DNA from: Caldivirga maquilingensis IC-167
GTDB taxonomy: Archaea > Thermoproteota > Thermoprotei > Thermoproteales > Thermocladiaceae
Direction of reading: 5' to 3'
NCBI RefSeq assembly: GCF_000018305.1
Contig: NC_009954.1
Location: 600,001 to 632,000 of the forward strand
DNA: 32,000 nucleotides
The position numbers and the translations under genes were made by a program. The first letter of the stretch is position 1; each line of letters opens with the position of its first letter. Below the pieces are notes generated by a model. That model did no database searches and was not told the origin of the DNA. It was given only the letters and a program-made list of their open reading frames with translations. Of the stretch, positions 9,318 to 26,742 are shown piece after piece.

Positions 9318-9355
9318 GGGTTAGTGCTTATTAAGGCTAGTTAAATGCATTATCA

Positions 9356-10441
9356 ATGATAGTTTCATCAGCCCCAGGCAGGGTGGATCTATTCAACACT
9401 CACCAGGACTATAAGGGGTTACCTGTGGTTCCAGCTGCAGTGGATCTAAGGACTACTGTTGAGGGGGAGTTGAGGATGGGTGATGTTATTAAGGTTAAGT
9501 CAATTAACATGAATGAGGAGGTTGAGTTAAGGATGAGTGATGAATTGAAGGTTGGGCAATGGAGCAGTTACGTATTAGCCGCATTGAAGGCTTTATCAAT
9601 GCACGGTTACTTCATAGGTGGTGCCGAGTTAACAATAAGAAGCAGTGTACCCGTGGGTTCAGGGTTAGCCAGCAGTGCTGCATTACTGGTTTCAGTGGTG
9701 AACTGGTTCAATAAGGCTTACGGCTTAGGCTTATCTAAAAGGGATATTGCTGAATTGGCCTATGAGGCTGAGCACAATGTAATGGGCATACCCTGTGGTA
9801 GACTTGACCAATACTCCTCATCATATGGAGGCCTAATAATACTAGAGACTAGGCCACCCTACAGGGTTGAGGAACTGGGTGTTAAGGGCCTTGACTTCAT
9901 TGTTGTTGACTCAGGGGTTAGGCATAGTACAATGAATGTGCACACGGTTAGGCAGAGGGAGCTTAGGGAGGCCCTCAGTATGCTTAAGGAGTCCATACCG
10001 AGGAGTCATTGGGATAAATTAAATAAGCCACTTGATGAGATTGATTGGGATTGGTTAGCCGCAGCGGCTAAGGATTACTTAAACACACTGAGTGACGTGC
10101 ATAGGAGGAGACTTGAATTCACAATACTCATGAATGAGTCAACAAAGAAGGCTATAGTTGAGTTGAGGAAGAGTAAACCGGATAGGAGGGTTTTAGGTGA
10201 AATCATGAATGAGCAGCATAGGTTACTTAGGGACCTATATGAAGTCAGTATACCGGAGCTTGAGGAGATTAAGAGGGTCCTCGACCTCAATGGCGCATTA
10301 GGGTCTAAGATAAGTGGCGCAGGCATGGGGGGTTCAATAGTGGCCTTAGCTGAGGATAGGAAGGAGGCTGAGAGGATCCTTGACTCCATTAAAAGTAAGT
10401 GGAGGGGTTGGGTTGTATCAATTGATCAAGGCGTGTCATAA
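9356..10441 (+). CDS. galK: Galactokinase (GHMP kinase)
   Basis: N-terminal APGRVDLFNTHQDY (galactokinase signature), GHMP motif PVGSGLASSAAL, and C-terminal GAGMGGS. Confidence 0.85.
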   Translation: MIVSSAPGRVDLFNTHQDYKGLPVVPAAVDLRTTVEGELRMGDVIKVKSINMNEEVELRMSDELKVGQWSSYVLAALKALSMHGYFIGGAELTIRSSVPVGSGLASSAALLVSVVNWFNKAYGLGLSKRDIAELAYEAEHNVMGIPCGRLDQYSSSYGGLIILETRPPYRVEELGVKGLDFIVVDSGVRHSTMNVHTVRQRELREALSMLKESIPRSHWDKLNKPLDEIDWDWLAAAAKDYLNTLSDVHRRRLEFTILMNESTKKAIVELRKSKPDRRVLGEIMNEQHRLLRDLYEVSIPELEEIKRVLDLNGALGSKISGAGMGGSIVALAEDRKEAERILDSIKSKWRGWVVSIDQGVS

Positions 10442-10453
10442 ATATTAACGTGA

Positions 10454-10466
10454 TTTATTTAAAAGG
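10454..10466 (+). promoter_or_regulatory. TATA-like box (atttatttaaaag) for pyruvate kinase
   Basis: Centred ~27 nt upstream of the ATG at 10487. Confidence 0.4.
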
Positions 10467-10486
10467 GGGTTAAGGCAAGGTGTCGT

Positions 10487-11857
10487 ATGGTTGGTAAAGT
10501 TAAGATAATGGCCACAATTGGACCCTCATCAGAGAAGCCTGAGGTTGCTGGGAAACTAATTAAGTTAATTGATGGAGCAAGGGTTAACTTCTCCCACGGT
10601 GACTTAAACACCTGGGTAAGTAGGATTGAGTTAATTAGAAGAATTAACCCAAGCATCCCCATACTCGGTGACTTACCGGGACCAGGGGTAAGGACCGGTG
10701 AAATGGTTGACCTACCCTTCAGTAAGGGTGACTCCTTAACATTTAAACTGGCTAATGAGGGTAAGGGTTACGTACCAGTACCTGTTAAGGAGTTCTTCGA
10801 TATTGTTGATAAGGGTGATGTAATAATAATGGATGATGGTAGGATAAGGCTTGAGGTGACTGGTAAAGGTAGTAATGAGGTTACTGTAGTTGCCTTAACA
10901 AACGGCATAATTAGGACGCATAAGTCAATAACAATTATGAATAAGGATTACCCACTCCCCATACTTGGTGATAGGGATAAGGAGGCCATTAAGGTTGCCG
11001 CCAAGTACAACCTAGAGTACCTTGGGTTAAGCCACGTTAGGAGTGTTGAGGATATTGAGAGCACTAGGGAGTATTTAAGGAGCCTTAATTATTCACCAAT
11101 GATTATTGTTAAGGTTGAGACAGCCAGTGCCATAAGGAGTATAAAGGATATAGCCTGCAATGCGGATTACGTCATGGTGGCTAGGGGTGACTTAGGCATG
11201 GTGTTTAACCTAGAGGAGGTTCCTAAGATTCAGGAGAAGATAATTACAGCAGCCCACTCCTGCGGTAAACCGGTAATGGTGGCTACGCAGCTCCTTGAAT
11301 CCATGGTTAATAACCCGGTACCCACCAGGGCGGAGGTTGTTGACATCATGACTAGTGTGCTTCAGGGTGTTGATTCACTTCTTCTAACCGATGAAACAAC
11401 AATGGGTAATTACCCAGTTGAGGCTGTTGAGTGGCTTAGGAGGATAGTTAGTAATTACGAGGATCAAGTAACCCCAGGCTTTAGGGCTGATTCATCTGTT
11501 TTTGATGAGAGAATGAGGTTTGCCCTAGGGGTAGCTGAGTTAGCTGATAGCATAGGTGCTAAGATAGTCGTCTTCACTAAAAGCGGCTTAACAGCGGTTA
11601 GGCTTTCCAGATATAGGCCTAGGGTACAGATACTGGCTGGTACACCGAGTGAGGCAGTGTTCCGTAGGCTTAAGTTGCTTTGGGGTGTTGAGTCTAGGGT
11701 CATTAATGACCAAGACTACGATAAGGGTATGGTGGATACCTTAAACGAATACATTAAGGAGGGTTTAATAAAGCACGGTGACTTAGTGGTATTAACCTAC
11801 GGCCTTAGACCAAATGTAAGCGAGTATGAGCATGTGATTAAGTTAATTAGGGCCTAA
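10487..11857 (+). CDS. pyk: Pyruvate kinase
   Basis: IMATIGPSS, ARVNFSHGD, the MVARGDLG signature and KPVMVATQLLESM. 456 aa. Confidence 0.9.
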   Translation: MVGKVKIMATIGPSSEKPEVAGKLIKLIDGARVNFSHGDLNTWVSRIELIRRINPSIPILGDLPGPGVRTGEMVDLPFSKGDSLTFKLANEGKGYVPVPVKEFFDIVDKGDVIIMDDGRIRLEVTGKGSNEVTVVALTNGIIRTHKSITIMNKDYPLPILGDRDKEAIKVAAKYNLEYLGLSHVRSVEDIESTREYLRSLNYSPMIIVKVETASAIRSIKDIACNADYVMVARGDLGMVFNLEEVPKIQEKIITAAHSCGKPVMVATQLLESMVNNPVPTRAEVVDIMTSVLQGVDSLLLTDETTMGNYPVEAVEWLRRIVSNYEDQVTPGFRADSSVFDERMRFALGVAELADSIGAKIVVFTKSGLTAVRLSRYRPRVQILAGTPSEAVFRRLKLLWGVESRVINDQDYDKGMVDTLNEYIKEGLIKHGDLVVLTYGLRPNVSEYEHVIKLIRA

Positions 11858-13791: not shown

Positions 13792-14718
13792 ATCCCAACG
13801 CCCCTAGAACCATGTATTTAACTCTTTATGGCAGTGTTAATAGTGGATGCAGCCTAATTTCCGGTTATTAATTCCCATGAATCATGGGGACTCATTAAGT
13901 ATGCTTAGCTCAGATCAGTGTTAAGCTGGGTTTGTTGAGTATAGACATGGCTAATGCTATAATGAGGGCCTTCGGAAAATTAATGAGCAGTGCATTGGAT
14001 GGATACATAGAGTTTAATGTTTCTACTTGTTTTCTTTAGGTGGTTTATGGTTTACCGCTTGCATCCTCATTGTTTCATGAGGAGTTACCCTCGCTCTCGC
14101 ATCCCTAGGATTCAGGAATATGTAGAATGAACCTAGAGCTTAAAAGCTCCATCCCTAGAAGGAGCAAGGCTCATCATCTTCTTTGGTCAATAATTATTGA
14201 TACTATTATGGATTCACCTATGAATTCATCAGATGACAAGATTACCGAATTAAGATAAGTATGAGTATACAACTAGTGAATCGTAACGCGGTAGGTCAAA
14301 TAAGGCTCATTAGTGAGACTGGTGGTAAGTAGTAGGAAGCCTAATGTTAAGGTTATGATGGGGCAAGCCAGAATCCTCTGCAGCATTAATAATATTACTA
14401 TCACTAATCTTGGGTTATGAAACGGCTTCATCACTAGTTAAGGGTTTAAGCACTGGCTCATCAATTAGAGATTTACTTAAGGGACTGGGTTACAGTTAAT
14501 GAAAACATCAACAAAATACTCAATATAATGGAATTGACGAAACCTGGATTTAAGATTAAGAAGGTAATTAATGGATCCACTACGTGGATCATAGGTATTA
14601 TCCATTAAAATGATTTATTCATACCAATTTATAACCGATAACTAATCCCTTTGGCCCTAGGTTTATGCCCTTACCTGCTAAATATTAGCCATTTTACGGT
14701 GAAACTATATCATTCTCA

Positions 14719-14976
14719 TTACTGCTTCCTGGCTACTATTCTATAGGTTCCATTACCTATAGGTTCAATACTGATTACTTCACCATTAAGCTCCTCTACG
14801 GCTGCTGGAACTGTTTCACAGCTTAGTGGATTATCTATAAGTATTTCCACCTCATCGCCTCTACTTAATTGCGTAAAATACTTCCTAGTGAATAATACTG
14901 GGTATGGACATGCGTAACCTCTTAAATCTAGCTCATACCTACCACTACTACTTCTCCGAAGCTCAACCATAACCAC
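14719..14976 (-). CDS. tusA: TusA/SirA-family sulfur carrier protein
   Basis: LDLRGYACPYPVL contains the conserved CPxP persulfide-carrying Cys motif. It is ~83-85 aa. The likely true start is the ATG at 14970, because 14976 is GTG. Confidence 0.8.
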   Translation of the reverse strand: MVMVELRRSSSGRYELDLRGYACPYPVLFTRKYFTQLSRGDEVEILIDNPLSCETVPAAVEELNGEVISIEPIGNGTYRIVARKQ

Positions 14977-15066
14977 TAGACTATAATAATATTGAAAAAC
15001 ATTCTACTGAAGTTATAAAATACATTTAGGGATTAGCTTAATACCTTATAATTCACTGAGCAACCT

Positions 15067-16233
15067 ATGAGTGATTTATTTGCAACATCAGTAGTAGGTA
15101 GTTGGCCGAGGCCAAGGTGGTTATTGGATGCGCTTAAACGCAGGAATAAGGGTGAGTTAAGCATTGATGATTTTAATAAGATCGCCGATGAGGCTGTGCT
15201 TCTTGCCATTAAGTACCAGGAGGATGCTGGTATTGATGTGATTACTGATGGTGAACAGAGACGCGACAACTTCTACTCATTCGTCGTTGATAAGCTTAAT
15301 GGTGTTAAGTTAATGAGTGCAGCAGAGTTACTGGATTACGTTGAGAATAAGGAGATGTTTGAGAACGTGCTAAGGGCCCAGGACGTGCCATCTACTTCAA
15401 TAAGGAACCCGGTGGCTGTGGATAAGGTGAGTTTAAAGAGGCCCCTTGTCTCAGATGAAGCATTGTTCCTCAAGGAGCATACTAGAAGTCGTATTAAAGT
15501 GACTATACCGGGACCGTACTTACTCACGAGATCCATGTGGGTTAAGGCATTGTCAGGGGGAGTTTACCCAACTAGGTATGATTTAGCCAAGGATATTACT
15601 AAGATACTTAGGGAAGAGATTATTAGGCTTAGGGATTTAGGCGTGGATTTCATTCAACTGGATGAACCAACACTAATGGAGGTGCTTTACGGCAAGTATG
15701 GTGTTGGCTCAACATTCATGTGTGCAGTGCTTGCTGCTAGAATGGATCCAACCGAGGAGTTGGAGTTCGCTGTAAACTTGATAAACGAGACCATTAAGGG
15801 TATTGATGGTGTTAGATTAGGTATCCACGTGTGTAGGGGTAATTGGACTAAGAATGAGAAGGCTTTATTAAGCGGTGACTATAGGCCATTGTTACCATAC
15901 CTCATGGAAACTAAGGTAAAGCAGTTGGTTCTTGAATTCTCAACACCAAGGGCTGGTGACGTGGATGTTTTAAGGGATTACGCCAATGAGAAGGAGATTG
16001 GCCTTGGCGTCGTTAATCCTAGGAGTGATGTTGTGGAAAGCGAGGATTTTGTAATTGAAAGGGTTAAAAGAGTCATTAAGTTCCAGGATGCAGGTAAGGT
16101 GTGGTTAAACCCAGACTGCGGTTTCGGAACCTTTGCAGAGGTTCCACTGGTTAATTCGGAGATTGCCTATAGGAAGCTGAGAATTATGGTTAATGCAGCC
16201 AAGAAACTGAGGCAAGAGTTTACGGGCAAGTAG
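15067..16233 (+). CDS. metE: Cobalamin-independent methionine synthase-like protein (MetE C-terminal catalytic domain, COG0620)
   Basis: The N-terminus is TSVVGSWPRP. The Zn-ligand pattern is IHVCRGN (H-x-C), LVLEFS (Glu) and NPDCGF (Cys). At 388 aa it is a single-domain archaeal type. Confidence 0.8.
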   Translation: MSDLFATSVVGSWPRPRWLLDALKRRNKGELSIDDFNKIADEAVLLAIKYQEDAGIDVITDGEQRRDNFYSFVVDKLNGVKLMSAAELLDYVENKEMFENVLRAQDVPSTSIRNPVAVDKVSLKRPLVSDEALFLKEHTRSRIKVTIPGPYLLTRSMWVKALSGGVYPTRYDLAKDITKILREEIIRLRDLGVDFIQLDEPTLMEVLYGKYGVGSTFMCAVLAARMDPTEELEFAVNLINETIKGIDGVRLGIHVCRGNWTKNEKALLSGDYRPLLPYLMETKVKQLVLEFSTPRAGDVDVLRDYANEKEIGLGVVNPRSDVVESEDFVIERVKRVIKFQDAGKVWLNPDCGFGTFAEVPLVNSEIAYRKLRIMVNAAKKLRQEFTGK

Positions 16234-16276
16234 AGTAAGAGTTCTTCATTTAAATCTTAAACCTGAAATATTTAAC

Positions 16277-16293
16277 AATGCATTTAATGCATT
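16277..16293. promoter_or_regulatory. Two adjacent copies of the 8-bp palindrome AATGCATT upstream of the OsmC-like/rhodanese operon
   Basis: AATGCATT occurs at 16277-16284 and again at 16286-16293, separated by one T, 41-57 nt upstream of the ATG at 16334. This is a candidate operator. Confidence 0.3.
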
Positions 16294-16333
16294 CATAATT
16301 GTGTATTTCTACTAGCTACGTATTAGTGTTGTT

Positions 16334-16873
16334 ATGGTTCAGGTGGTGGGGTTTAATGGGCTTGATTTGGATGCGTTGAGGAGGATTGTGGATGAGATAT
16401 CTAGGAATCCATCCATGGTTAAGCAGACTAGTACTTGGGTGGCTAGGACTAGGTGGTTGGGTGGGTTTAGGGTTAAGGCTTATGTTAGGAACTTCACAGT
16501 GGAGTTTGATGAACCAGATTCCCTAGGTGGTTCAGGGAAGGCACCAAAACCTACTGAGTACATTCTAGCCGCATTGGGTGCTTGTTTAACCATAGGCTTT
16601 ATACTTAATGCAACTAAGAGGGGTGTGAGGGTTAATGACTTGGAGATAGCCCTTGAGGGTGATTTAAACAATGTCCTAGTATTCCTAGGATTAAGTAATG
16701 AGGGTCATCCAGGGTATAGGGAGATAAGGGTTAAGGCCTACATAAACACAGACGCCCCAGAAAACATTGTGAAGGAGCTATGGGAATACACAGTGAAAAC
16801 ATCACCAGTAGGCAATACACTAACCAACACCGTTAACCTAATCACCGATGTAAAGGTAATCAATGAAGTGTAA
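16334..16873 (+). CDS. OsmC/Ohr-family protein retaining only the first catalytic Cys
   Basis: GKAPKPTEYILAALGACLTIGF is the family's first Cys motif. The position of the second CPV motif reads KTSPVGNTL, so Ser replaces Cys. Confidence 0.75.
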   Translation: MVQVVGFNGLDLDALRRIVDEISRNPSMVKQTSTWVARTRWLGGFRVKAYVRNFTVEFDEPDSLGGSGKAPKPTEYILAALGACLTIGFILNATKRGVRVNDLEIALEGDLNNVLVFLGLSNEGHPGYREIRVKAYINTDAPENIVKELWEYTVKTSPVGNTLTNTVNLITDVKVINEV

Positions 16874-16875
16874 AC

Positions 16876-17631
16876 ATGATAAGAATAATAAACCTAAATC
16901 AAATTAAGGATGCTGTTGAGGATTATTTGCTACTTGACGCAAGACCATACATTGACTACATGAGTAAGGGCCACATACCTGGAGCAGTTAACGCTCAGGT
17001 TAGTAGGATTATGGATGTAATAACGGGAGCCATTAAACCTATTGGTGAATTGAATGCAGTATTTAAACAATGGGGTATTGATGAGGATAAGCCCATACTC
17101 ATATATGATGAGTATGATGGGCAATTAGGGGCTAGACTTGCATGGACCCTTGATTACTGTGGTCATGATAAAGTATTCCTGGTCAGGGAGTTCTTCAGTA
17201 CCTATGCCAATTCAGGTGGGCAATTATCCTATAAATTGGAGAAGGCCACCCATGAGGGTAATTTTAAGTGCAGACCCAATGAGGGAGTTAGGGCCACTGC
17301 TGAATACGTGCTCTCTACATTAAACAGTGCCCTAATCATAGATGCTAGGAGCCCCGAGGAATTCATAGGAGGTAACCCTGAGGTGCCGAGACCTGGTCAC
17401 ATACCTAATGCAGTCAATATCCCATGGCTTGAATTACTGGACCCTGATGGATACAGGATTGTGGATTTAGGGCTTAGTAGGGATAAGGAGATTATCGTCT
17501 ACTGTGACTATGGCTTGAGGGCATCGGTGGTATACTCCGTGCTTAGGCACTTTAACTATAAGGTTAGGCTTTATGAAAAGGGTTACATGGAGTGGGGTTC
17601 TAATCCAAATCTACCTGTAGTTAGTGGCTAA
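16876..17631 (+). CDS. Tandem-rhodanese sulfurtransferase (inactive N-domain, active C-domain)
   Basis: Domain 1 has LLLDARP...GHIPGAVN with Asp at the active-site position (IYDEYDGQLGAR). Domain 2 has IIDARSPEEF...GHIPNAVNIPW with the active-site loop VYCDYGLRAS. It starts 2 nt after the OsmC-like stop. Confidence 0.8.
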   Translation: MIRIINLNQIKDAVEDYLLLDARPYIDYMSKGHIPGAVNAQVSRIMDVITGAIKPIGELNAVFKQWGIDEDKPILIYDEYDGQLGARLAWTLDYCGHDKVFLVREFFSTYANSGGQLSYKLEKATHEGNFKCRPNEGVRATAEYVLSTLNSALIIDARSPEEFIGGNPEVPRPGHIPNAVNIPWLELLDPDGYRIVDLGLSRDKEIIVYCDYGLRASVVYSVLRHFNYKVRLYEKGYMEWGSNPNLPVVSG

Positions 17632-17693
17632 TACTCTTCACTTAATTATAATAAGCACGGATGGTTTATTATACAGAAGTGGTAAGTTGAATT

Positions 17694-19772
17694 ATGAATG
17701 AGGAGGTAAGGTGCCTTAGAGGTAGTGCTTCACCATACATTACGGATGCCTTAAGTAGCCCAGTTAAATGGTGGGGTTGGTGCAGTGAAGCCTTTGAGAA
17801 GGCTAGGCATGAGGGTAAGCCCATATTGATTGATGTAGGTGCTGGTTGGTGCCACTGGTGTCACGTTATGGATGAGGAAACATACTCTGATCCTGAGGTT
17901 GCGGAGTTGCTTAATAACTACTTCATACCAATTAAGGTTGATAGAGATGAGAAACCTGATGTGGATAGGAGGCTTCAGGAAATCGCCATGCTCATCAGTG
18001 GTCAGGGTGGTTGGCCATTAACAGTGATACTGACGCCAAACGGCGATCCACTATACGCAGCCACATACCTACCACCAAGGGATAAGGCTGGGCTTCCCGG
18101 AATGGTTAAGGTGCTTAATGCCACCCTTAATGCACTTAGGTTTAAGTCCAGTGAAGTTGCTGAAGCTGTTAGGCAGGTTAGGGAGGCATTGAGTCAAGAG
18201 GAGTCAGCAACACCCAGTGAACCCTCATGGGATTCCCTGGAGTCTGTGATTAATGATATAGTGAGTCTTCATGATGATGAATACGGCGGCTTTGGCACCA
18301 TGCCCAAGTTCCCGCAGCCCACTTTCCACACACTACTACTGCATATGGGTTACCACGGTGATGAACACCTAGTGAAACTGGTTACATACACTTTGAGGAG
18401 AATGTACTATGGGGGTGTTTATGATCAACTTGGTGGTGGATTCCATAGGTACTCAGTGGATAGGGAATGGCTTATACCTCATTTCGAGAAGCTACTGATT
18501 GATAACGCAGAGTTACTGGCTAACTACGCTGAGGCATACGCGGTAACTGGTGATGTTGATTTAAGAAATGCAGCCATGGGCATCACCAGTTACTTAACGA
18601 GTGAGCTTTGGAACCCGGAGGGCGGCTTCTATGCAAGCCAGGACGCGGACGTGGACCCAAGTGACGAAGGTGGCTACTATAGGTGGAGTATTGATGAATT
18701 ACGCAGTTTATTGAGTAACGAGGAGTTTGAACTTATCTACAGATACCTTGGAGTCTATAGATTTAAGGATAGTGGGGAGAAGGCCGTGCTCCATGTGGCC
18801 ATGAGCCTTACTGAAGCGGCGAGACTCGCCGGTATAGAGCCTAACAGAGCTGAGGAGGTTTTGAGGAGCGCCATCAGTAAGTTGCGGCAGGCCAGGAGTA
18901 AAAGGCCTAAGCCTAGGATTGATAGGACAGTATACACTAATTGGTCCTCTGCAGCAGCTCTGGCACTGATGGAGTATCACGATTACGTAAATCCAGGAAC
19001 GCTAAGTTACGCAGTGAAGACCGTAGATTACATAATGAGTAAGCTTTACATTAATGGTGAGTTACGTAGAGGCTTCAGGTCCGGGCCCCTTTACATGGGG
19101 AGTCTGGACGACTACGCATACACCTTAATAGCATCAATACAGGCCTTTAGCCACACGGGTGAGGTTAAGTACTTATCCTTCGCAAGGGAATTAGCCGAGG
19201 GTTTAATAAATAACTTCGAGGCAAAGGATGGGGGATTCTACGACACTAAGCTGTCTAATGATTCACCAATAGGTATGAGGGTTAAGCCAATATTCGATAC
19301 ACCTAACTGGAGCCCCAACGCCCTAGCCATAATGGGATTACAGGATATGGCGAGGTTAGGGCTGATTAAGGGTGATTCCTTGGATAAGGCTGTAAAGTCA
19401 CTATACCCATTGGCAACCAGGTACGGTAGATCAGCAGCATCCTACTTCATAACCCTATGGAGGTATTTAGCTGAACCACCGAAGGTTATTATTATTGGCG
19501 ACTCTAGGGATGATGAGGCATTCCTAAGCCTATGGAAGATAGCCTTATCAACATTCAGACCCGGTAAACTAGTAATACCGTTAACAAGGGATTATGTTAA
19601 CGAGTTTACAGGTGACCAAACTATCAGTTACATGGTTCGGGAGCAGAGAAGGTTAAGTAGGCCACTGGCCTTTGTATGCGCATACACGGCATGCTCCATG
19701 CCAATAGAGAAACCGGAATCGCTAAGGCAAGTTATAGAGACATTCATGGTTAATAGGTATATGAACCGGTAA
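17694..19772 (+). CDS. Thioredoxin-domain protein of the DUF255/YyaL/SPATA20 family (COG1331)
   Basis: SPYITDALSSPVKWWGW..EAFEKAR.EGKPILIDVGAGWCHWCHVMDEE...IPIKVDRDE.PDVD is the family's thioredoxin-like N-domain with CxxC. The long alpha/alpha-toroid-like C-terminal part brings it to 692 aa. Confidence 0.8.
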   Translation: MNEEVRCLRGSASPYITDALSSPVKWWGWCSEAFEKARHEGKPILIDVGAGWCHWCHVMDEETYSDPEVAELLNNYFIPIKVDRDEKPDVDRRLQEIAMLISGQGGWPLTVILTPNGDPLYAATYLPPRDKAGLPGMVKVLNATLNALRFKSSEVAEAVRQVREALSQEESATPSEPSWDSLESVINDIVSLHDDEYGGFGTMPKFPQPTFHTLLLHMGYHGDEHLVKLVTYTLRRMYYGGVYDQLGGGFHRYSVDREWLIPHFEKLLIDNAELLANYAEAYAVTGDVDLRNAAMGITSYLTSELWNPEGGFYASQDADVDPSDEGGYYRWSIDELRSLLSNEEFELIYRYLGVYRFKDSGEKAVLHVAMSLTEAARLAGIEPNRAEEVLRSAISKLRQARSKRPKPRIDRTVYTNWSSAAALALMEYHDYVNPGTLSYAVKTVDYIMSKLYINGELRRGFRSGPLYMGSLDDYAYTLIASIQAFSHTGEVKYLSFARELAEGLINNFEAKDGGFYDTKLSNDSPIGMRVKPIFDTPNWSPNALAIMGLQDMARLGLIKGDSLDKAVKSLYPLATRYGRSAASYFITLWRYLAEPPKVIIIGDSRDDEAFLSLWKIALSTFRPGKLVIPLTRDYVNEFTGDQTISYMVREQRRLSRPLAFVCAYTACSMPIEKPESLRQVIETFMVNRYMNR

Positions 19773-19896
19773 AATCAACAATACGATACTCTACTGCATT
19801 AGCTAAAGCTAGTCTTCAATAATATTTAAAGTGATCTTGGAATTTAATTAATAAAGCTTTCGCAGACTTGCTGTAAATAATGTTATTTAAGCAGGG

Positions 19897-19908
19897 CTTA
19901 AATATAAG
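19897..19908 (+). promoter_or_regulatory. TATA-like box (cttaaatataag) for the 19926 operon
   Basis: Centred ~23 nt upstream of the ATG at 19926. Confidence 0.4.
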
Positions 19909-19925
19909 CTTGAGGCATATGCGTC

Positions 19926-20834
19926 ATGCCATTATGCCCCATCTGTAGGGTTAGGTTTAATGATTGGAGTGATGTTGCAGCTCATTTTAACGAAATGACT
20001 AAAGTTAATGATGCAGCTCATGTGATGTGGTTGAATAGGAATATTTCATCTAGGGAATTAAGCATTGATGAGTTAAGCGTTAGGTTAAGGGACTTATTCA
20101 GGATTGGTAATGGACTTGGTTCATGGATTAGGGATATTTTCATCAAAAGATTCTACGGCGATAATCCTCACCCCTTCATGGTAGCTATGCAGAAGCCTAA
20201 TAGGGCAGTGCTCCTGGGCTACGTATTGGAGCATCAACACTTCCTTAGAAATTGGGTTAGGGTCCTAGCTACCATAGTGGCTAAGACTGATAAGGATGAT
20301 GTGGTTAGGTATGAGCTTGAGAATATGTCTGTGGAATTCCTCGGTTACCGCAATAGGCCATCACACTACGAGCTGCTTATTAGAATGGGTGAATCCCTAG
20401 GCATGAGCAGGGCTGAAATACTATCCACACCACCATTGAAGGCAACATTGGATTCCATTAACGTATGGCGTAGAATAGCCAACGAGAGGACGTGGGTTGA
20501 AACCATGGCTGCAATGCATAGTCTTGAGCTTGCCGCGGATAAGAGTCTACGTAAGTATGGGGCTAGGATGCATTACTTCAATGAGGCGATACTATCATCC
20601 CCAGAGTACCCTGATGCTGTTAAGGAGTTCCTTAGGGAGGGTTATGAGGCTGATGAACATCACGCTGGCGAGGCATTGGAGCTGGTTGAGAAGTATGCTG
20701 GTGAAATGAACCTTATTGAGGAGGTTCAAGTAACAGTGCTTGAATCCCTTGATGCACTGCATAATTACCTATGGGCCCGTTTACAGAGGGCTATGATGAT
20801 TGATCCTGGGCTTATTAAGGTGATTACGCAATGA
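19926..20834 (+). CDS. N-terminal C2H2-like Zn finger fused to a heme-oxygenase-like (PqqC/TenA/CADD-type, putative di-iron) helical domain
   Basis: The N-terminus has C4-x2-C7-x12-H20-x11-H32. The rest looks all-helical, with His/carboxylate motifs [29 protein letters not shown] and EADEHHAGE, as expected for the six His/Glu/Asp ligands of heme-oxygenase-like di-iron oxidases. The assignment is from memory of the family and is not searched. Confidence 0.5.
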
Positions 20835-21148
20835 TAATCGAGGTCAATGGTAGGCAAGTAGGTACTAAGGAGACTGGATGCGCGCTCTGCGGTGCCACTT
20901 GGGGTGAGTACTATGATGAGGTTGATGGAGAGAAACTCTTCTTCTGCTGTGACTTATGCGCAAAGGGCTTTAAGAATATTATTAATGAGATTAAGAGAAG
21001 GACAGGTTGGAGTAGGATTGATAAGTTAACCATGGTCGGCAACTACTATAAGGGTAGGACAGGTGTAGCAATGCATGGTAATGAGCAGTTTAAGTTTTAC
21101 GTTAAGTTTAACGATGATGCAGACATAACTATATTCAATGAACTGTAA
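20831..21148 (+). CDS. Small TRASH/YHS-like Cys-motif metal-binding protein with an uncharacterised C-terminal domain
   Basis: C17-x2-C20-x18-C39-C40-x2-C43 ([31 protein letters not shown]) is close to the TRASH consensus C-x2-C-x19-22-C-x3-C. Its start overlaps the upstream stop (ATGA at 20831-20834). Confidence 0.5.
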
Positions 21149-21325
21149 GCATTATGATTAAGTTAAGTTTAAAACAATCTTATTAAGCTACCTAATTACA
21201 TGAAGGAACCTAAGGATGATCATTAGGTAGGTGGAACATGTTCAGTAAGGTAAAGGTTAAATATAACTAAATAGATTTGAGAAGGGGAAGGGAAAATGAT
21301 TAATTTGGTTTTAAGGTACCTTAAT

Positions 21326-22213
21326 TTAAGGTTCATTACCCTTCTTAACTGGTGCACCAACAGCATTACCCCACTCGGCCCAAGAGCCGTCATAAACCCT
21401 AACAGCTGGGTAACCAAGTAGGTACTTGAGTACGAACCATGTGTGGGAGGCTCTTTCCGCAATCCTGCAGTAGGTTATTACCTCCTTATCTGGTGTTATT
21501 CCATACTGGCTGTAAAGTCTCCTTAATTCCTCAACGGGTTTAAACTCACCAGTGTCTGGGTTCACGGCTAGGCTCCAGGGAATATTGATGGCACCTGGTA
21601 TGTGCCCACCCACCTGAGCATGCTCATTAGGGTATTCTGGTGGTGCCGTTATCTCACCAGTGTACTCTCTAGGCGACCTAACATCGACAAGCGCTAGACT
21701 TTTACCAATCTCACCCTTGTTGAGTCTATTCAATATCTCCCATAGGTAAACCCTATGTCCACCCCAGTCAACCTTCTTAACCGTGTACCTGGCCCCAACA
21801 TCCTTGTAATAATGCGGCTCCTGGTGACCACTGCATGTGGGCCCATTCTCCTTAGCCCACTTGGTACGCCCACCATTCAGTAACCTAACGTCCTCATGTC
21901 CATAAACCTTGAAGAGCCAGAAGGCGTAGGCTGCGAACCAGTTATTATAGTCACCGTAAAGTATAACAGTAGTATCATTAGATATGCCCCTCTCCTCCAT
22001 GTACTTTGCGAATTGATCAGGTTCAACGAAATCCCTTCTCACTGGATGCCTAATATGATCCTTCCATGTCAATAATGCAGCACCCGGCAAGTGCCATGCA
22101 AAGTATGCGGTGTTCGGATCATAGTCAACCTCCACAACTCTAACCTTTGGGTCATTTAAGTGCTTCCTCATCCACTCAGTATCCACAAGCACCTCGGGAT
22201 GCGCATAGCTCAT
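21326..22213 (-). CDS. Thiosulfate sulfurtransferase (tandem rhodanese, TST-type active site)
   Basis: The N-domain is inactive (ILYGDYNNWFAAYAFW). The C-domain has GHIPGAINIPW and the active-site loop YCRIAERASH (CRxxxR[ST]). 295 aa. Confidence 0.85.
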   Translation of the reverse strand: MSYAHPEVLVDTEWMRKHLNDPKVRVVEVDYDPNTAYFAWHLPGAALLTWKDHIRHPVRRDFVEPDQFAKYMEERGISNDTTVILYGDYNNWFAAYAFWLFKVYGHEDVRLLNGGRTKWAKENGPTCSGHQEPHYYKDVGARYTVKKVDWGGHRVYLWEILNRLNKGEIGKSLALVDVRSPREYTGEITAPPEYPNEHAQVGGHIPGAINIPWSLAVNPDTGEFKPVEELRRLYSQYGITPDKEVITYCRIAERASHTWFVLKYLLGYPAVRVYDGSWAEWGNAVGAPVKKGNEP

Positions 22214-22327
22214 AATTAGCCTAAGCTAATAGATTTTAATAAACGTCTTGTAAAAAGCATATTATACACGAGATTGCAGAAATTTCATGTATAAAAAATA
22301 TTTTAAAACACGCTGTGAAAAGCACCT

Positions 22328-22594
22328 ATGGCCATTAATATTACAAAGACTGTTAAATTTGATAGGAATGAATCATGTGAAACTGGATTAAGGCATCCTA
22401 TTTACACGATTATAGATGAGTTAAAGAAATTGAATCATAATGAGGGAATAAGAGTACTTGTTAATGATTATGATTGGGTTTTAGTTATTAAAAACACAGT
22501 TAACCTAATGAAGAATTTCTGCATTACGGATAATGGTAGTAATACTGAGTTATTTCATGAACTTATAATTTATAAATGCGTACTCAATCCATAG
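22328..22594 (+). CDS. DUF2249-like (TusA-fold, Cys-less) small protein
   Basis: RHPIYTIIDELKKLNHNEGIRVLVNDYD resembles the DUF2249 core (RHP.I...l..L..ge.l.l.NDHDP). The gene is markedly AT-rich relative to its neighbours. Confidence 0.4.
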   Translation: MAINITKTVKFDRNESCETGLRHPIYTIIDELKKLNHNEGIRVLVNDYDWVLVIKNTVNLMKNFCITDNGSNTELFHELIIYKCVLNP

Positions 22595-22846
22595 GAAGAA
22601 GATTCAAGTGAGTTATACGAAGTTTTGGTGATTTAAAAATTCATTAACACCATAGGTAGATTTATGGCTAAGATAATGAAGGTTAATTATTATTGAAATA
22701 GGATAAGTCACTGATATAATGAATGACAAGTCTAGCTCCTTCTGTAGTTGGTTTAAGCTCCCACTGGTAACATTAAAATGCAGAGAGGGCTCAGAGGCAT
22801 TAATTCAGGTTTATGCATATTTAAGAACAGGTTACTCCACCTAGAT

Positions 22847-23851
22847 TCATGAAACCGTACTGGTAATCCAGGGTATTGGGACTTCATCAATTCTCCACCT
22901 CTGCTTAATTACACTATCCTCAATACTAATGCTTACGCCACTTTTATAGGCCAGTAAACCAGTCCAAGCAATCATAGCTCCATTATCACCAGCATACTCA
23001 GGGGGGACAACGTGCAGTGTCGCCGTGTATTCTGATGCAACGATCTCCATTATGCTTCTTAGTATGGGGCTTCTGGCTACGCCGCCGGCTATCACTATCT
23101 CCCTCTTACCCAGTAGTGCTAATGCCCTCTCAGTCACCTCAGCCAGCATGTAGTATGCCGTGTTAACTATGGATAAGCAAACATTCTCAACCCTCCTCCC
23201 CTCCTTAACCAACTTCACTGCTGCAGTGTATAGGCCTGCGAAGGACATGTCCTGTCCCTTAACAGTGTAGGGTAACTCTAACATTACCTTACCTCTCCTG
23301 GCGCATTCCTCAAGGTGTGGTACACCTGGGTTAGGTAGGCCAAGGAATCTGGCGAACATGTCGAGGCAATTACCCACTGATATATCCATTGTCTCCCCAA
23401 AGACCCTATACCTACCACCTGAGTAGGCGGTTACCATGGTGTGTCCACCTGAGACTAAGAGTACTAATGGGTCCTTGGCACCCGTGGTCATTTTAGCTAT
23501 CTCAATGTGGGCTACCCCATGGTGGACAGGCACAAGGGGTTTACCGTACTTAATGGCTATGAACCTAGCCACAGTTGCCCCAACCCTTAATGCTGGTCCT
23601 AAGCCAGGCCCCTGGGAAAAAGCCACTGCATCAAGGTCACTTAATTTAACCTCAGCCTTATCTAATGCCCTCTTAACTAAATGCGACGCCTTCAATGCGT
23701 GATGATCCGCAGCCTCCCTTGGGTGAATACCTGAGCCCTGGGGTGGTGTGTAGGTTTCATTCTCATTAGCCAATACCTCATTATCATTAACTATCCCCAC
23801 CCCTATGGTGTGGGCTGTGGATTCAATGCCGAGAATTATCACAAGCCTCAC
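22847..23851 (-). CDS. kae1: Kae1, tRNA N6-adenosine threonylcarbamoyltransferase (KEOPS catalytic subunit)
   Basis: GIESTAHTIGVGIV, the metal site HHGVAHIE, LLVSGGHT, and C-terminal GDNGAMIAW. 334 aa and not fused to Bud32. Confidence 0.9.
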   Translation of the reverse strand: MRLVIILGIESTAHTIGVGIVNDNEVLANENETYTPPQGSGIHPREAADHHALKASHLVKRALDKAEVKLSDLDAVAFSQGPGLGPALRVGATVARFIAIKYGKPLVPVHHGVAHIEIAKMTTGAKDPLVLLVSGGHTMVTAYSGGRYRVFGETMDISVGNCLDMFARFLGLPNPGVPHLEECARRGKVMLELPYTVKGQDMSFAGLYTAAVKLVKEGRRVENVCLSIVNTAYYMLAEVTERALALLGKREIVIAGGVARSPILRSIMEIVASEYTATLHVVPPEYAGDNGAMIAWTGLLAYKSGVSISIEDSVIKQRWRIDEVPIPWITSTVS

Positions 23852-23924
23852 GAATCCTAGTTCTATTTAAATCCTCACTCAACCCAGTGGATTTATTATG
23901 ATTTAGAGTCATTAATTTGAGCCT

Positions 23925-24143
23925 TCACCTACCTCTACTCGGCCTCTGTCTTGGTGCTTGGCTTTCAAATATAGTGTAACCGCATTTACCGCAATGCCAC
24001 CTGGGTACTGGTTCCTTGTGGTAAGCCATTACTGAACCACACCTAGGGCATAGTCTCTTATTAAACCTAAACACACCCTTCTCCATGTCTATGGTATACC
24101 AAGTGTGTGCCCTTGCCTTAACAGCCTTACTCATACTTAACAT
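23925..24143 (-). CDS. rps27ae: 30S ribosomal protein S27ae (eS31)
   Basis: Zinc ribbon CPRCGSVMAYHKEPVPRWHCGKCGYT. ~70 aa and basic. A TATA-like atttttaaaaa lies ~30 nt upstream. Confidence 0.85.
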   Translation of the reverse strand: MLSMSKAVKARAHTWYTIDMEKGVFRFNKRLCPRCGSVMAYHKEPVPRWHCGKCGYTIFESQAPRQRPSRGR

Positions 24144-24299
24144 TCGGTTACCTCCCTTTTTAAAAATAGCTGTCTAATGTATCGCCCACCCTGGTGCATT
24201 GCATTTAAATTCACGTGAAGTGTGGTTGGGTTATGAAACTGGTGTTTAAGGTAATGGGTAAGGAACAACCTTTATTAGGCTTAACTAATTAGCGTTCAC

Positions 24300-25307
24300 G
24301 TGAAGAATCCCATTGAGGTTAGGAAGATTCAAGTAGCTGGTAAGTCCTCCTTAGCCGTAACCATACCCAAGAGGTGGGCTGAGGTACTTGGGATTAATGC
24401 AGGTAACCCAGTCTACCTGGAGTTTAGGGGTTATGAGATTGCCGTATTGCCTGCATTAATGGTTCATGAGGTTGAAACACAGAGGGTTATTGAGGTTAAG
24501 CCTGGTGAGAGTTCTGATTCAGTTATTAGGAGGGTTATAAGCGCGTTCATTAAGGGTGCCCAGGTAATTAGGGTTATGTTCACTGGTAGTGTGGATAGGG
24601 AGTTAATTGATGAAGTCACTAGGGAGATCAGTGTCCGCGTACCCATAGTTGAGACCATAAGTTACGGTAATGGTGAGGTCAAGGTAACTGTACTATCCCC
24701 CACTAGTAATATGCCTATTAAAAGCTTCATAGCCAGGATGAGTAATGTTGTTTCAGGAATGTTTAAGGACGCCTTAAGCCTGATTAAAATAGATCCTGAG
24801 GAGAGACTTAGTATGGCTAGGGATATAATGGATAGGGATTACGATGTTGATAGGAATTATATGCTTATACACAGGTTAATAAACATGGCTGTGAATGGTT
24901 TAATAAGCGTGAGGAGCGTTGAGATTGATGATAGGCCTGAACTCTTATCCTGTCTCCTGGTCTCTAAATCCCTTGAGAGGTCAGGTGACCATTCCTGGAG
25001 GATTGCCCAGTGGATGCTTGAGATTGGTTCAATTAATGAGGATGTTGCAGACCTAATACTGGCCCTTGGTGATGAGGTTAGTGACCTTCATAAATCCGCA
25101 GTATCCTCCTTCCTAAGTAGGGATGTTGATAAGGCGCAGGCCGTGTTAGATATGAGGAATAATATTGCTCAAAGGAGGGTTGAGGTGAGTAATATGCTTA
25201 AGGCCTACAACATAACGGGGCCATTAAACCTCGTGATTGAATCAATAGGTAGGTTAGCTGCCTACGCGTACGATATTGCTGAAATAACTCTTGACACGTA
25301 CTTATGA
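24300..25307 (+). CDS. AbrB/SpoVT-domain plus PhoU-domain regulator (archaeal PhoU-like)
   Basis: GTG start. The N-terminal VRKIQVAGKSSLAVTIPKRWAEVLGINAGNPVYLEF is an AbrB/MazE swapped-hairpin motif. The C-terminal half has PhoU-like helical repeats (ARDIMDRDYDVDRNY; SRDVDKAQAVLDMRNNI). Confidence 0.7.
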   Translation: MKNPIEVRKIQVAGKSSLAVTIPKRWAEVLGINAGNPVYLEFRGYEIAVLPALMVHEVETQRVIEVKPGESSDSVIRRVISAFIKGAQVIRVMFTGSVDRELIDEVTREISVRVPIVETISYGNGEVKVTVLSPTSNMPIKSFIARMSNVVSGMFKDALSLIKIDPEERLSMARDIMDRDYDVDRNYMLIHRLINMAVNGLISVRSVEIDDRPELLSCLLVSKSLERSGDHSWRIAQWMLEIGSINEDVADLILALGDEVSDLHKSAVSSFLSRDVDKAQAVLDMRNNIAQRRVEVSNMLKAYNITGPLNLVIESIGRLAAYAYDIAEITLDTYL

Positions 25308-25568
25308 ACCATACCTTTAAGGGCATCACCGTGTTTAACATTAATCCCCCATCAACATCATGTACTTAACCTCTATTGAATTAATACAGCATCTACATAA
25401 TATTAATGTTAGTAACCATATCAGGAATTAGCATTAAATTACAATAATCATGATCCTTACATTAATGTACCTAAAGCCTCATTATACATAAGGGGTTTAA
25501 TGCTTAAATCGCCTATGCCTCACTGCATATATTGAGGATTCCAGTGGGCTTGAATGATAGCCTTAGCC

Positions 25569-25584
25569 TTATAAAATTTAAAAG
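25569..25584 (+). promoter_or_regulatory. TATA-like box (ttataaaatttaaaag) for the PhoH-like gene
   Basis: Centred ~26 nt upstream of the ATG at 25603. Confidence 0.4.
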
Positions 25585-25602
25585 TAAGGTGGGGTAAGGT
25601 TC

Positions 25603-26742
25603 ATGATGTCCAGCCTATTTGATAATGTTAAGCCACTTACAATGGGGCAGGAGAGGTTAATTAATGTACTTAAGGATGATGGTAATGAGGTTGTTGGAGC
25701 CTTTGGCCCAACTGGGACTGGTAAAAGTTTCATAACGGTGATTTACGGCATCTCAGCGGTATTAAGTGGTCGATTTAAGAGGCTCATAATAGCTAGGCCT
25801 TTAATAGACATAACCAGTGGTAAGCTTGAATCCCCTGAGGAGTTAGGTGACTTATACTATAGGGTTGCTGGGCAATACCTGTACGACATATTAGGCGACA
25901 TGGTGCCTAGGGATGATATGGAGAAGATGCTTAGGGATGGTAGAGTTATAGTGACTGATGTTAGCTACCTAAGGGGTAGGACCTTCGATGAATCAGTGAT
26001 ACTGCTTGATGATGCACAGCATGCTCCCCCAGAGAACGCTGCTGAGGTTCTTATGAGGATGGGTAGGAACGCTAGGTTGATAATTGCCGGTGATCCAATA
26101 CTGCAGAGGCCATTGGGTATTGAGAAGGATGGCGCAACGTTAATGAGGGAGGTTCTGCTTAATGAGGAGAAGGCTATGGTTGTTGACTTAGGTTTGAAGG
26201 ATATAATTAGACCTGGAGCTAAGAGGGGCCTTAAATTAATGTTTGAGCTTAGGTTAAGGAGAAGGAGCCTGAATGATGATGAGAAGAAGTTAATGGATGT
26301 TATAAGGGTTCATGCCCCAGATGCGGATGTAGTCACTGTGGTGGGCTTTAGGGATATTAAGGAGAACCTAGACATAAAGTCTGAGAATGCCCCAGATGCA
26401 TTAATAGTGGCTAAGGAGGGTTACTTAGGTAGGGTTGTGGGTAAGGGTGGGGAGAGGATTAAGGCTATTGAGAATGATTCAGGCTTCAAGTTAATAAGAA
26501 CGGTTGAAATGAGCCTTGACTTTAAGCAGTGGATTAGAACAATACATCCAATAAGCTGGATAATTAAGCACATTGTTGATGTTGATTTCGCTGGACCTGA
26601 GTTACAAGTGATCTTGAGGAGGGAAATGGGGGCCTTCGTTGGGCCTAAGGGAACCTACATTAGGCTTCTTGATAGGGTTTTCAAGAGGTTATTGAACATT
26701 GGCGTGAGGGCTATTGAGGAGGAGCAGCCAACGGAGCAATAG
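25603..26742 (+). CDS. PhoH-like P-loop ATPase with a C-terminal KH domain
   Basis: Walker A GPTGTGKSF, Walker B ILLDDAQH, and a KH GxxG core in LGRVVGKGGERIKAIENDSG. Confidence 0.8.
   Translation: MMSSLFDNVKPLTMGQERLINVLKDDGNEVVGAFGPTGTGKSFITVIYGISAVLSGRFKRLIIARPLIDITSGKLESPEELGDLYYRVAGQYLYDILGDMVPRDDMEKMLRDGRVIVTDVSYLRGRTFDESVILLDDAQHAPPENAAEVLMRMGRNARLIIAGDPILQRPLGIEKDGATLMREVLLNEEKAMVVDLGLKDIIRPGAKRGLKLMFELRLRRRSLNDDEKKLMDVIRVHAPDADVVTVVGFRDIKENLDIKSENAPDALIVAKEGYLGRVVGKGGERIKAIENDSGFKLIRTVEMSLDFKQWIRTIHPISWIIKHIVDVDFAGPELQVILRREMGAFVGPKGTYIRLLDRVFKRLLNIGVRAIEEEQPTEQ

Follow-up and report, generated by a model that had tools for sequence, protein, structure and literature searches.

A translationally coupled gene pair in Caldivirga maquilingensis

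We analysed a 32,000-nucleotide (nt) stretch of the genome of the archaeon Caldivirga maquilingensis IC-167 (NC_009954.1, positions 600,001 to 632,000 of the forward strand; this whole stretch is hereafter called the window and is numbered from its first letter), in which an earlier reading of the DNA sequence, the original prediction, had singled out two adjacent forward-strand open reading frames (ORFs) as a candidate metallo-oxidase module. ORF1 (19926-20834; 302 amino acids (aa)) joins a zinc-knuckle region to a TENA/THI-4/PqqC/CADD-type heme-oxygenase-like domain and is the orthologue of SSO2700 (PDB 4LQX) and Ta0939. ORF2 (20831-21148; 105 aa) is a member of the Ta0938 family (PF11494) and the orthologue of Thermoplasma acidophilum Ta0938 (PDB 2FQH). 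Each of the two is 100% identical to a C. maquilingensis protein found as a database match. The ATGA stop/start overlap that had been described for the pair is present at 20831-20834 on the forward strand, an arrangement consistent with translational coupling, and a Shine-Dalgarno (SD)-like AGGTGA (20818-20823, forward strand) lies within the 3' end of ORF1, 7 nt 5' of the ORF2 start. The TATA-like box ascribed to the pair was likewise found, as the AT-rich element CTTAAATATAAG (19897-19908, forward strand) some 20-29 nt 5' of the ORF1 ATG. Taken alone such a box is weak evidence; boxes of the TTTAAA/TTTAATA type occur at a similar distance from the ATG in the orthologous thermoacidophile loci, and the element is probably the promoter of a leaderless bicistronic transcript. 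Positions 14000 to 26000 of the window gave no match to an Rfam family.

The two genes are linked far beyond Caldivirga. Searching from ORF2, we found an ORF1 homologue directly upstream and on the same strand in 40/40 genome loci, which were drawn from Sulfolobales, Thermocladium, Caldisphaera/Acidilobaceae, Thermoplasma, other Thermoplasmata, Nitrososphaeria and soil metagenome-assembled genomes (MAGs) labelled Bathyarchaeota. The reverse search from ORF1 placed ORF2 directly downstream in 78 of 80 metagenome loci, originating from hot springs, soil and peat going by record names and sample identifiers, and the contigs of the other two end too early; the adjacency in related genomes that the original prediction had proposed as a check was thus seen in all 40 genome loci and in all 78 metagenome loci with room downstream. 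Named members of the family are mostly thermoacidophiles. Automatic parsing of the junctions succeeded for 53 of 121 sequences, the soil-clade ORF2 genes with their CAIC-Q/E/D motif and TTG starts having escaped it. A 4-nt overlap (ATGA, GTGA or TTGA) was present in 40 of these 53 junctions, with most of the others at -17 to +12 nt, and a GAGGTG/GGTGA SD-like motif lay 5' of the ORF2 start in 44. At the unparsed junctions, ORF2 begins -40 to +54 nt from the end of the ORF1 alignment (tblastn coordinates). Furthermore, distances among the ORF1 proteins correlate with those among their ORF2 partners (101 pairs; r = 0.84, Mantel p = 0.001). ORF1 and ORF2 make up a genuine module of ancient origin whose parts are tightly coupled, and the sequence comparisons indicate that its two genes are inherited and expressed as a single unit. 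An apparent ORF1-ORF2 fusion in one locus (L040) was rejected, being due to an ORF that extends out of frame in a high-GC contig.

ORF1 combines a Cys2His2 knuckle with a heme-oxygenase-like fold

The N-terminal Cys2His2 knuckle of ORF1 (19926-20102, forward strand; residues 1-59) matches the Pfam family zf-C2H2_9 (PF16293) at 8e-29 with 99.8 bits against a cut-off of 29, and the helical domain (20145-20783, forward strand; residues 74-286) matches TENA_THI-4 (PF03070) at 1.4e-43 with 149.6 bits against a cut-off of 22, as well as Haem_oxygenas_2 (PF14518) at 3e-20 with 73 bits against a cut-off of 28.9. The knuckle motif reads C4-x2-C7-x12-H20-x11-H32 and had been described as C2H2-like with an unusual His-His spacing. 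This description holds, as the four ligands are kept in 28 of 29 homologues and in 38/38 sequences of a second alignment, and the 11-residue spacing is atypical. C4 and C7 are the only cysteines in ORF1. In an AlphaFold2 (AF2) model of the protein (pLDDT 94.9; alignment of 38 homologues from database matches) the knuckle forms a beta-hairpin followed by two helices bearing H20 and H32, a site that would hold a structural zinc.

At the sequence level ORF1 is 62-64% identical to SSO2700 of Saccharolobus solfataricus (4LQX; E 2e-129), and in Foldseek its model superposes on both crystal chains, knuckle included, with a TM-score of 0.97-0.98. SSO2700 has the same length and domain order as ORF1 and shows no structural difference from it; the entry, deposited by structural genomics in 2013, carries no functional name, and our literature searches turned up no paper that refers to it. 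Among characterised proteins, the best Foldseek match was Fe/Mn-loaded CtCADD (TMt 0.78, E 3e-6), followed by PqqC, TenA, BesC and UndA at E values from 1e-5 to 1e-3. The Pfam matches to TENA_THI-4 and Haem_oxygenas_2 and the TenA/PqqC/CADD group of fold neighbours confirm the heme-oxygenase-like fold that had been proposed, and ORF1 accordingly has the helical bundle that characterises the heme-oxygenase-like dimetal oxidase and oxygenase (HDO) superfamily.

Invariant residues of ORF1 match five of the six CADD metal ligands

A profile of the ORF1 family, made from 29 members, was searched against all PDB sequences. After 4LQX the top rank went to CADD/CT610 (2e-8), with the CtCADD 4-aminobenzoate (pABA) synthase at 3e-8 and a second 4-aminobenzoate synthase entry, 9pj4, apparently NePabS, at 2e-7, so that CADD (CT610)/CtCADD/NePabS of the HDO superfamily are the best characterised match to ORF1 by profile and by fold alike. 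These were followed by 3dde (2.6e-4; function not known), PqqC (about 3e-3, over half of the domain) and BesC (0.41). At E <= 10 no TenA with an established function came up, the sole match bearing the TENA/THI-4 name being the functionally unassigned domain 3dde.

In the HMMER alignments, residues E81, H88, E142, D178 and H181 of CADD fall on E137, H147, E201, D243 and H246 of ORF1, which are invariant in 29/29 and 38/38 sequences; these five CADD residues and H174 are what we take to be its six metal ligands. A histidine occupies the H174 position in CADD, in the 9pj4 synthase and in 3dde, whereas the ORF1 family has an invariant glycine there (G239). The ligand set of the di-iron oxygenase type envisaged in the original prediction is therefore incomplete, with five of the six CADD positions matched. 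The literature on CADD describes a metal site of three His and three carboxylates, and the HDO superfamily is defined by a ligand set of this 3H/3C kind, or of the 3H/4C kind, located on core helices alpha1-alpha3 (PMC13108848); ORF1 has invariant residues aligned to five of the six 3H/3C ligands, and the first alpha3 His corresponds to G239. A mononuclear HDO variant has been described in which two ligands of core helix alpha3 are lost (PMC13108848). Since the ORF1 family loses the first alpha3 His only and retains D243 and H246, it looks like a further ligand-set variant.

Conservation extends beyond the aligned ligands. CADD N77 aligns to the invariant N133 of ORF1, and further invariant residues are E102, H103, E130, H198, E238 and Y240. 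Among the paired His/carboxylate motifs pointed out originally, E102, H103, E130, N133, E137, H147, H198, E201, D243 and H246 thus proved to be invariant, and E244 and H245 are not conserved. E102/H103 align to D46/Y47 of CADD, and H198 precedes E201 by three residues. In SznF, an auxiliary helix supplies an extra Glu ligand (PMC7848743), of which the E102/H103 helix in ORF1 may be the counterpart, and judging from the sequence H103, H198 or E238, or else E102 or Y240, could stand in for the absent sixth ligand. R162, S274, Y281, R285 and R288 are also invariant and lie away from the aligned ligand positions. A heme oxygenase proper was rejected as an identity for ORF1, the conserved residues fitting a dimetal pattern and not a heme-binding one.

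The ORF1 family differs from CADD in being archaeal, in having ORF2 as an obligate partner and in carrying about 90 extra N-terminal residues with the Cys2His2 knuckle. It shares with CADD and NePabS the HPF motif before the sacrificial Tyr, which in NePabS lies in HLLQHPF-Y25-IAW (PMC11965152). At the position of NePabS Y25/CtCADD Tyr27, however, the family has a near-invariant PHPF-(M/I/V/L)-VAM, the residue in ORF1 being M85; this comparison is a motif-level alignment made by eye, as the HMMER alignments begin just after the motif. With Met, Ile, Val or Leu there, ORF1 would be unable to sacrifice the residue at the Tyr position itself. The column of the sacrificial Lys (Lys152/Lys159) is occupied in the ORF1 family by K, R, N, S, G, Q, D or E. 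With both the sacrificial Tyr and the sacrificial Lys missing, we rank the possibility that ORF1 is a CADD-type pABA synthase low.

ORF2 carries an invariant five-cysteine site

ORF2 matches the Ta0938 family (PF11494) over profile positions 1-91 of 92 (5e-46; 155.4 bits against a cut-off of 27) and the nuclear magnetic resonance (NMR) structure of T. acidophilum Ta0938 (2FQH) at 3e-29. Its Cys region (20870-20980, forward strand; residues 14-50) contains the motif C17-x2-C20-x18-C39C40-x2-C43. Conservation of these cysteines had been set beforehand as a test, and all five are invariant in 23/23 homologues, with the same five present in Ta0938. The other invariant residues of ORF2 are W24, G25, F37, F38, G70, G75, R76, F89 and F93; no Tyr or Lys is invariant.

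The likeness of this motif to TRASH/YHS domains, noted in the original prediction, is supported by sub-threshold matches to TRASH_HVO_1752_C in 20 of the 23 members (best 2.5e-5; ORF2 itself scores 15.9 bits against a cut-off of 27) and by weak matches to YHS in eight. Searching 1.84 billion representative proteins with the ORF2 profile gave 35 clusters at E <= 1e-10, nearly all of them stand-alone proteins of about 100 aa. The weaker matches cover the Cys region only, in two to six stretches per protein, and those that were scanned are mostly multi-YHS/TRASH/HMBD heavy-metal-binding proteins. With TRASH/YHS domains, which occur for example in copper ATPases, in proteins that handle copper in Sulfolobus and in components of soluble di-iron monooxygenases, ORF2 has C-x2-C ... 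C-x3-C in common. The TRASH/YHS consensus is C-x2-C-x19-22-C-x3-C, whereas ORF2 has an 18-residue spacing, an extra invariant Cys that creates the CC pair and a unique 55-residue alpha/beta domain, and it falls below the Pfam thresholds for both families.

This C-terminal part (20981-21145, forward strand; residues 51-105) folds into a helix and a four-stranded sheet in the AF2 model of ORF2 (pLDDT 97.1) and was found only in the Ta0938 family. It had been described as an unrecognised domain and it remains one, as beyond the Cys region ORF2 matched no other Pfam family and no solved fold, and a Foldseek search of the PDB with the model gave no significant neighbour (best E 0.11). The same search did not retrieve 2FQH, the NMR structure of the protein's own orthologue; the model and the NMR structure may therefore differ, perhaps in the Cys region. 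A complete Ta0938 domain was seen in just one long protein, P0216 (490 aa), which carries it at its N-terminus, fused to an alpha/beta-hydrolase (Abhydrolase_3), and was for that reason rejected as a Ta0938-HDO fusion. This single case may be either real or a gene-calling artefact.

The pair is not uncatalogued, because both proteins belong to dedicated Pfam families and structural genomics has supplied a structure for each, 4LQX and 2FQH. To this extent the earlier statement that no such system had been described does not stand; it does stand for the function of the pair and for the pairing itself, which are discussed in no paper that we found. Ta0938 adjoins Ta0939, and the two, the latter annotated as PQQC, were listed side by side in 2007 among the proteins shared by Thermoplasma and Sulfolobus (PMC1852104). 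Literature searches with 4LQX, SSO2700, the Pfam or UniProt accessions, Ta0939 and guessed locus tags found no functional study, and 2FQH turned up solely as a fold wrongly included in another study.

A candidate oxygen-activating enzyme with a proposed dedicated partner

We hypothesise, with a probability of roughly 0.45, that ORF1 is an O2-activating HDO-type metalloenzyme and that ORF2 is its dedicated partner, delivering metal or electrons. The two proteins would form a self-contained, co-translated module, in which ORF1 would bind one or two Fe (or Fe/Mn) through E137, H147, E201, D243 and H246 and activate O2 at this metal centre. ORF2, presumably made in matching amounts, would present its TRASH/YHS-type Cys site on the family-specific alpha/beta domain and, in complex with ORF1, either load the labile metal cofactor as a metallochaperone or pass electrons to the centre from a rubredoxin-like Fe(Cys)4 site. 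The first of these roles, metal delivery, was already put forward in the original prediction and is plausible. HDO metal cofactors are labile, and their assembly is conformationally gated and stepwise, with core helix alpha3 refolding (PMC7848743); one HDO, MboA, requires a redox partner (PMC13108848). As the pair has no other constant companion gene, we would expect the reaction to involve a general metabolite or to be related to a cofactor.

A number of observations weigh against this interpretation. The first His of the H-x3-D-x2-H motif, CADD H174, is replaced throughout the ORF1 family by an invariant Gly, so that the site may be mononuclear or of another build, or may not exist at all. 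The fold of ORF1 is shared by PqqC and TenA, which bind no metal, and TRASH-like Cys4 sites often just hold structural zinc. The fifth invariant Cys of ORF2 (C40) is accounted for neither by a chaperone nor by an electron-donor role, and our literature searches found no expression or genetic data on the pair. Finally, according to a review the HDOs studied so far require no protein effector (PMC13108848), and a partner role for ORF2 is thus without precedent in the superfamily.

Unusual oxygen chemistry is coming to light in HDO enzymes at a rapidly growing rate, and the review of the superfamily takes in bacterial members only (PMC13108848). The module would add to them an archaeal branch with an altered metal-ligand set and an ever-present co-translated partner, and ORF2 could shed light on the way in which cells load or reduce the HDO metal centre, which is notoriously labile. 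A bolder proposal, doubtful as a whole, is that the pair represents the first multi-component HDO system, in which an archaeal enzyme with rearranged ligands would be inoperative without its TRASH-type effector, metallochaperone or sacrificial co-substrate and would make a needed metabolite or cofactor, with a third Cys/His protein of 70 aa involved in soil/peat lineages. The module is practical to study, as the structures 4LQX and 2FQH exist and Sulfolobus acidocaldarius, which is genetically tractable, has the orthologous pair.

Alternative explanations for the pair

The pair could instead serve in the detoxification of peroxide, oxygen or iron, in the manner of rubrerythrin, which pairs a di-iron centre with an Fe(Cys)4 site for electron entry, or of the HDO-like protectant DtpC, reducing reactive oxygen species or sequestering iron in acidic, iron-rich, oxic habitats and making no metabolite. 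We consider this unlikely, although the pair stands alone without biosynthetic neighbours, an OsmC gene lies two genes upstream in the window and an AhpC-TSA gene is found near the pair in Caldisphaera lagunensis. The Cys4 partner also resembles the rubredoxin domain of rubrerythrin, which, like the multicomponent di-iron oxygenases, has a carboxylate/His centre together with a small Cys-rich site or effector. This is a functional analogy only, rubrerythrin being a four-helix ferritin-like bundle without homology to ORF1, and in the pair the Cys site is on a separate polypeptide. DtpC, with an HDO-like domain, protects against oxidative stress (PMC13232832), but its mechanism is itself not known and no HDO has been shown to act as a peroxidase. 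Moreover, peroxiredoxin-type neighbours are not conserved, and the invariant R162, S274, Y281, R285 and R288 look more like a specific substrate pocket.

The self-sacrificing chemistry of the pABA synthases (PMC9522330, PMC11965152), the nearest characterised relatives of ORF1, raises the possibility that ORF2 is a substrate or scaffold. In a reaction of the single-turnover or carrier-protein type, ORF1 would then oxidise either one of the residues of ORF2 or a group attached to the fifth Cys of ORF2, and the self-sacrifice of CADD would have been moved to a separate protein. Such a role would explain the fifth invariant Cys, for which there is otherwise no explanation, and translational coupling would suit a need for equal amounts of both proteins; the Tyr position of NePabS (HPF-Y25) is PHPF-M85 in ORF1, and the review mentions HDOs whose substrates are ribosomal peptides (PMC13108848). 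ORF2 lacks an invariant Tyr or Lys, however, and its compact, confidently folded model (pLDDT 97) is unlike a precursor peptide. As action of an HDO on a partner protein that is folded would also be without precedent, we regard this explanation as quite unlikely.

Metal-free chemistry of the PqqC/TenA type, with ORF1 as a cofactor-less oxidase or pyrimidine hydrolase and ORF2 as a zinc-stabilised structural or adaptor subunit, appears improbable. PqqC and TenA share both the fold and PF03070 with ORF1, TENA_THI-4 is its strongest Pfam match, PqqC and TenA structures are among its fold neighbours and one canonical metal ligand is missing; homologues of ORF1 are named 'thiaminase II/PqqC family', 'pyrroloquinoline-quinone synthase' or 'TenA family transcriptional regulator' in the databases. 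The profile similarity to PqqC and TenA is nevertheless much weaker, the ORF1 profile being five orders of magnitude nearer to CADD than to PqqC and reaching no TenA of known function in the PDB even at E <= 10, and in the absence of a metal the five aligned ligands would have no reason to persist as invariant residues. The thiaminase II TenA of B. subtilis has a catalytic Cys in its helical domain, which is absent from ORF1, as ORF1 has no Cys outside the knuckle. The identity of ORF1 as PqqC was rejected, since pqq genes accompany the pair at no examined locus and appear nowhere in its annotated neighbourhoods; thiamin genes were not found near the pair either. Because the sacrificial residues, the thiaminase Cys and the pqq genes are all lacking, the names 'TenA family transcriptional regulator' and 'pyrroloquinoline-quinone synthase' are unreliable, and these misleading annotations are corrected by the present analysis.

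The first of these two names, which is attached to many database entries for ORF1, together with the C2H2-type motif at the ORF1 N-terminus and the occurrence of TRASH domains in metal-sensing regulators, would suit a regulatory pair, in which ORF1 is a zinc-finger DNA-binding protein whose heme-oxygenase-like domain senses a ligand or metal and ORF2 a TRASH-type metal sensor, together controlling genes of metal/redox homeostasis. The name is, however, inherited from old TenA annotation and is no evidence, and the two His of the knuckle are an atypical 11 residues apart, each on a helix of its own. With the whole ORF1 chain, knuckle included, superposing on 4LQX, an invariant His/Glu/Asp cluster of catalytic appearance and no conserved target genes nearby, a regulatory function is very improbable.

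Genomic context of the pair

In the window, the pair is preceded on the forward strand by an OsmC-like gene (16334-16873), a rhodanese gene (16876-17631) and, directly upstream, a DUF255/thioredoxin-like gene (17694-19772), and an antisense rhodanese gene follows it downstream. The three closely spaced upstream genes (16334-19772) resemble a thiol/peroxide-stress operon and are not conserved with the pair elsewhere. Homologues of the rhodanese, DUF255 and Kae1 genes of the window are absent from 40/40 genome loci, and in the 80 metagenome loci only one DUF255 match was seen. The sulfurtransferase and thioredoxin-domain flanks reported in the original prediction are thus indeed there, but as a context that is not conserved elsewhere. 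Since no neighbour besides ORF1 and ORF2 themselves is conserved across clades in 128 loci, the sulfur context of the pair is incidental. The oxidative tailoring of a sulfur-carrying or Cys-bound substrate that had been suggested from the position of the pair between the OsmC-rhodanese-DUF255 genes and the antisense rhodanese gene is largely refuted and hardly credible, given a single DUF255 match in 120 loci and the lack of any relation to sulfur transfer in the neighbourhoods of the pair in Sulfolobus, Metallosphaera, Thermoplasma, Caldisphaera and soil archaea.

An 88-aa ORF (22328-22594, forward strand) is situated between Kae1 and the antisense rhodanese gene; for this ORF we found no Pfam family and only a weak Urm1 match (E 0.06). 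Its sequence, DRNESCETGLRHP...GIRVLVND, loosely resembles that of TusA-like sulfur carriers.

In other archaea the annotated neighbours of the pair are entirely different from clade to clade and include Amidohydro_2, LigB, flavin reductase and Mo-hydroxylase genes in S. acidocaldarius, Amidohydro_2 and GH15 in M. sedula, TFB and tRNA synthetases in T. acidophilum, AhpC (AhpC-TSA) and a methyltransferase in C. lagunensis, and DUF1326 and a thiamine-pyrophosphate (TPP) enzyme in a soil archaeon. Both S. acidocaldarius and M. sedula have Amidohydro_2 and Flavin_Reduct genes no more than a few kb from the pair, accompanied in the former by a LigB dioxygenase; the regions concerned are L121:6009-7760 and 9284-10631 and L127:4474-5280 and 14093-14557 in our locus numbering. 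This association, limited to Sulfolobales, could hint at the metabolism of aromatic compounds.

A third gene in soil and peat archaea

A third gene was observed 10-25 nt upstream of ORF1 in 66 of 129 sequences (the 128 loci and the window). The loci that have it belong mainly to soil/peat Nitrososphaerota and to 'Bathyarchaeota'-labelled and Thermoplasmata MAGs (L012:4870-5085; also L014-L019, L022-L024, L037-L039, L067, most of L070-L120, and L125:6749-6982), and neither the thermoacidophile loci nor the window contain it. Its product of about 70 aa shows the pattern ERELL-GM-NCY-x2-C-H...FE-TV-MV...LR-RLP-x2-FP, with the consensus mtp.erELl.GM.NCy..ChadFe.Tv.MVg.aRgl....Vk..L.r.r...g.d.eY..LR.rLP..FP, and matched no Pfam family, all its relatives being named 'hypothetical'. 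The soil-clade ORF2 proteins (L012, L037, L089) lack the first 12 or so residues of the thermoacidophile form and have CAIC-Q/E/D in place of CALCG, and in L012 and L089 ORF2 appears to begin with a TTG start that overlaps the last codons of ORF1.

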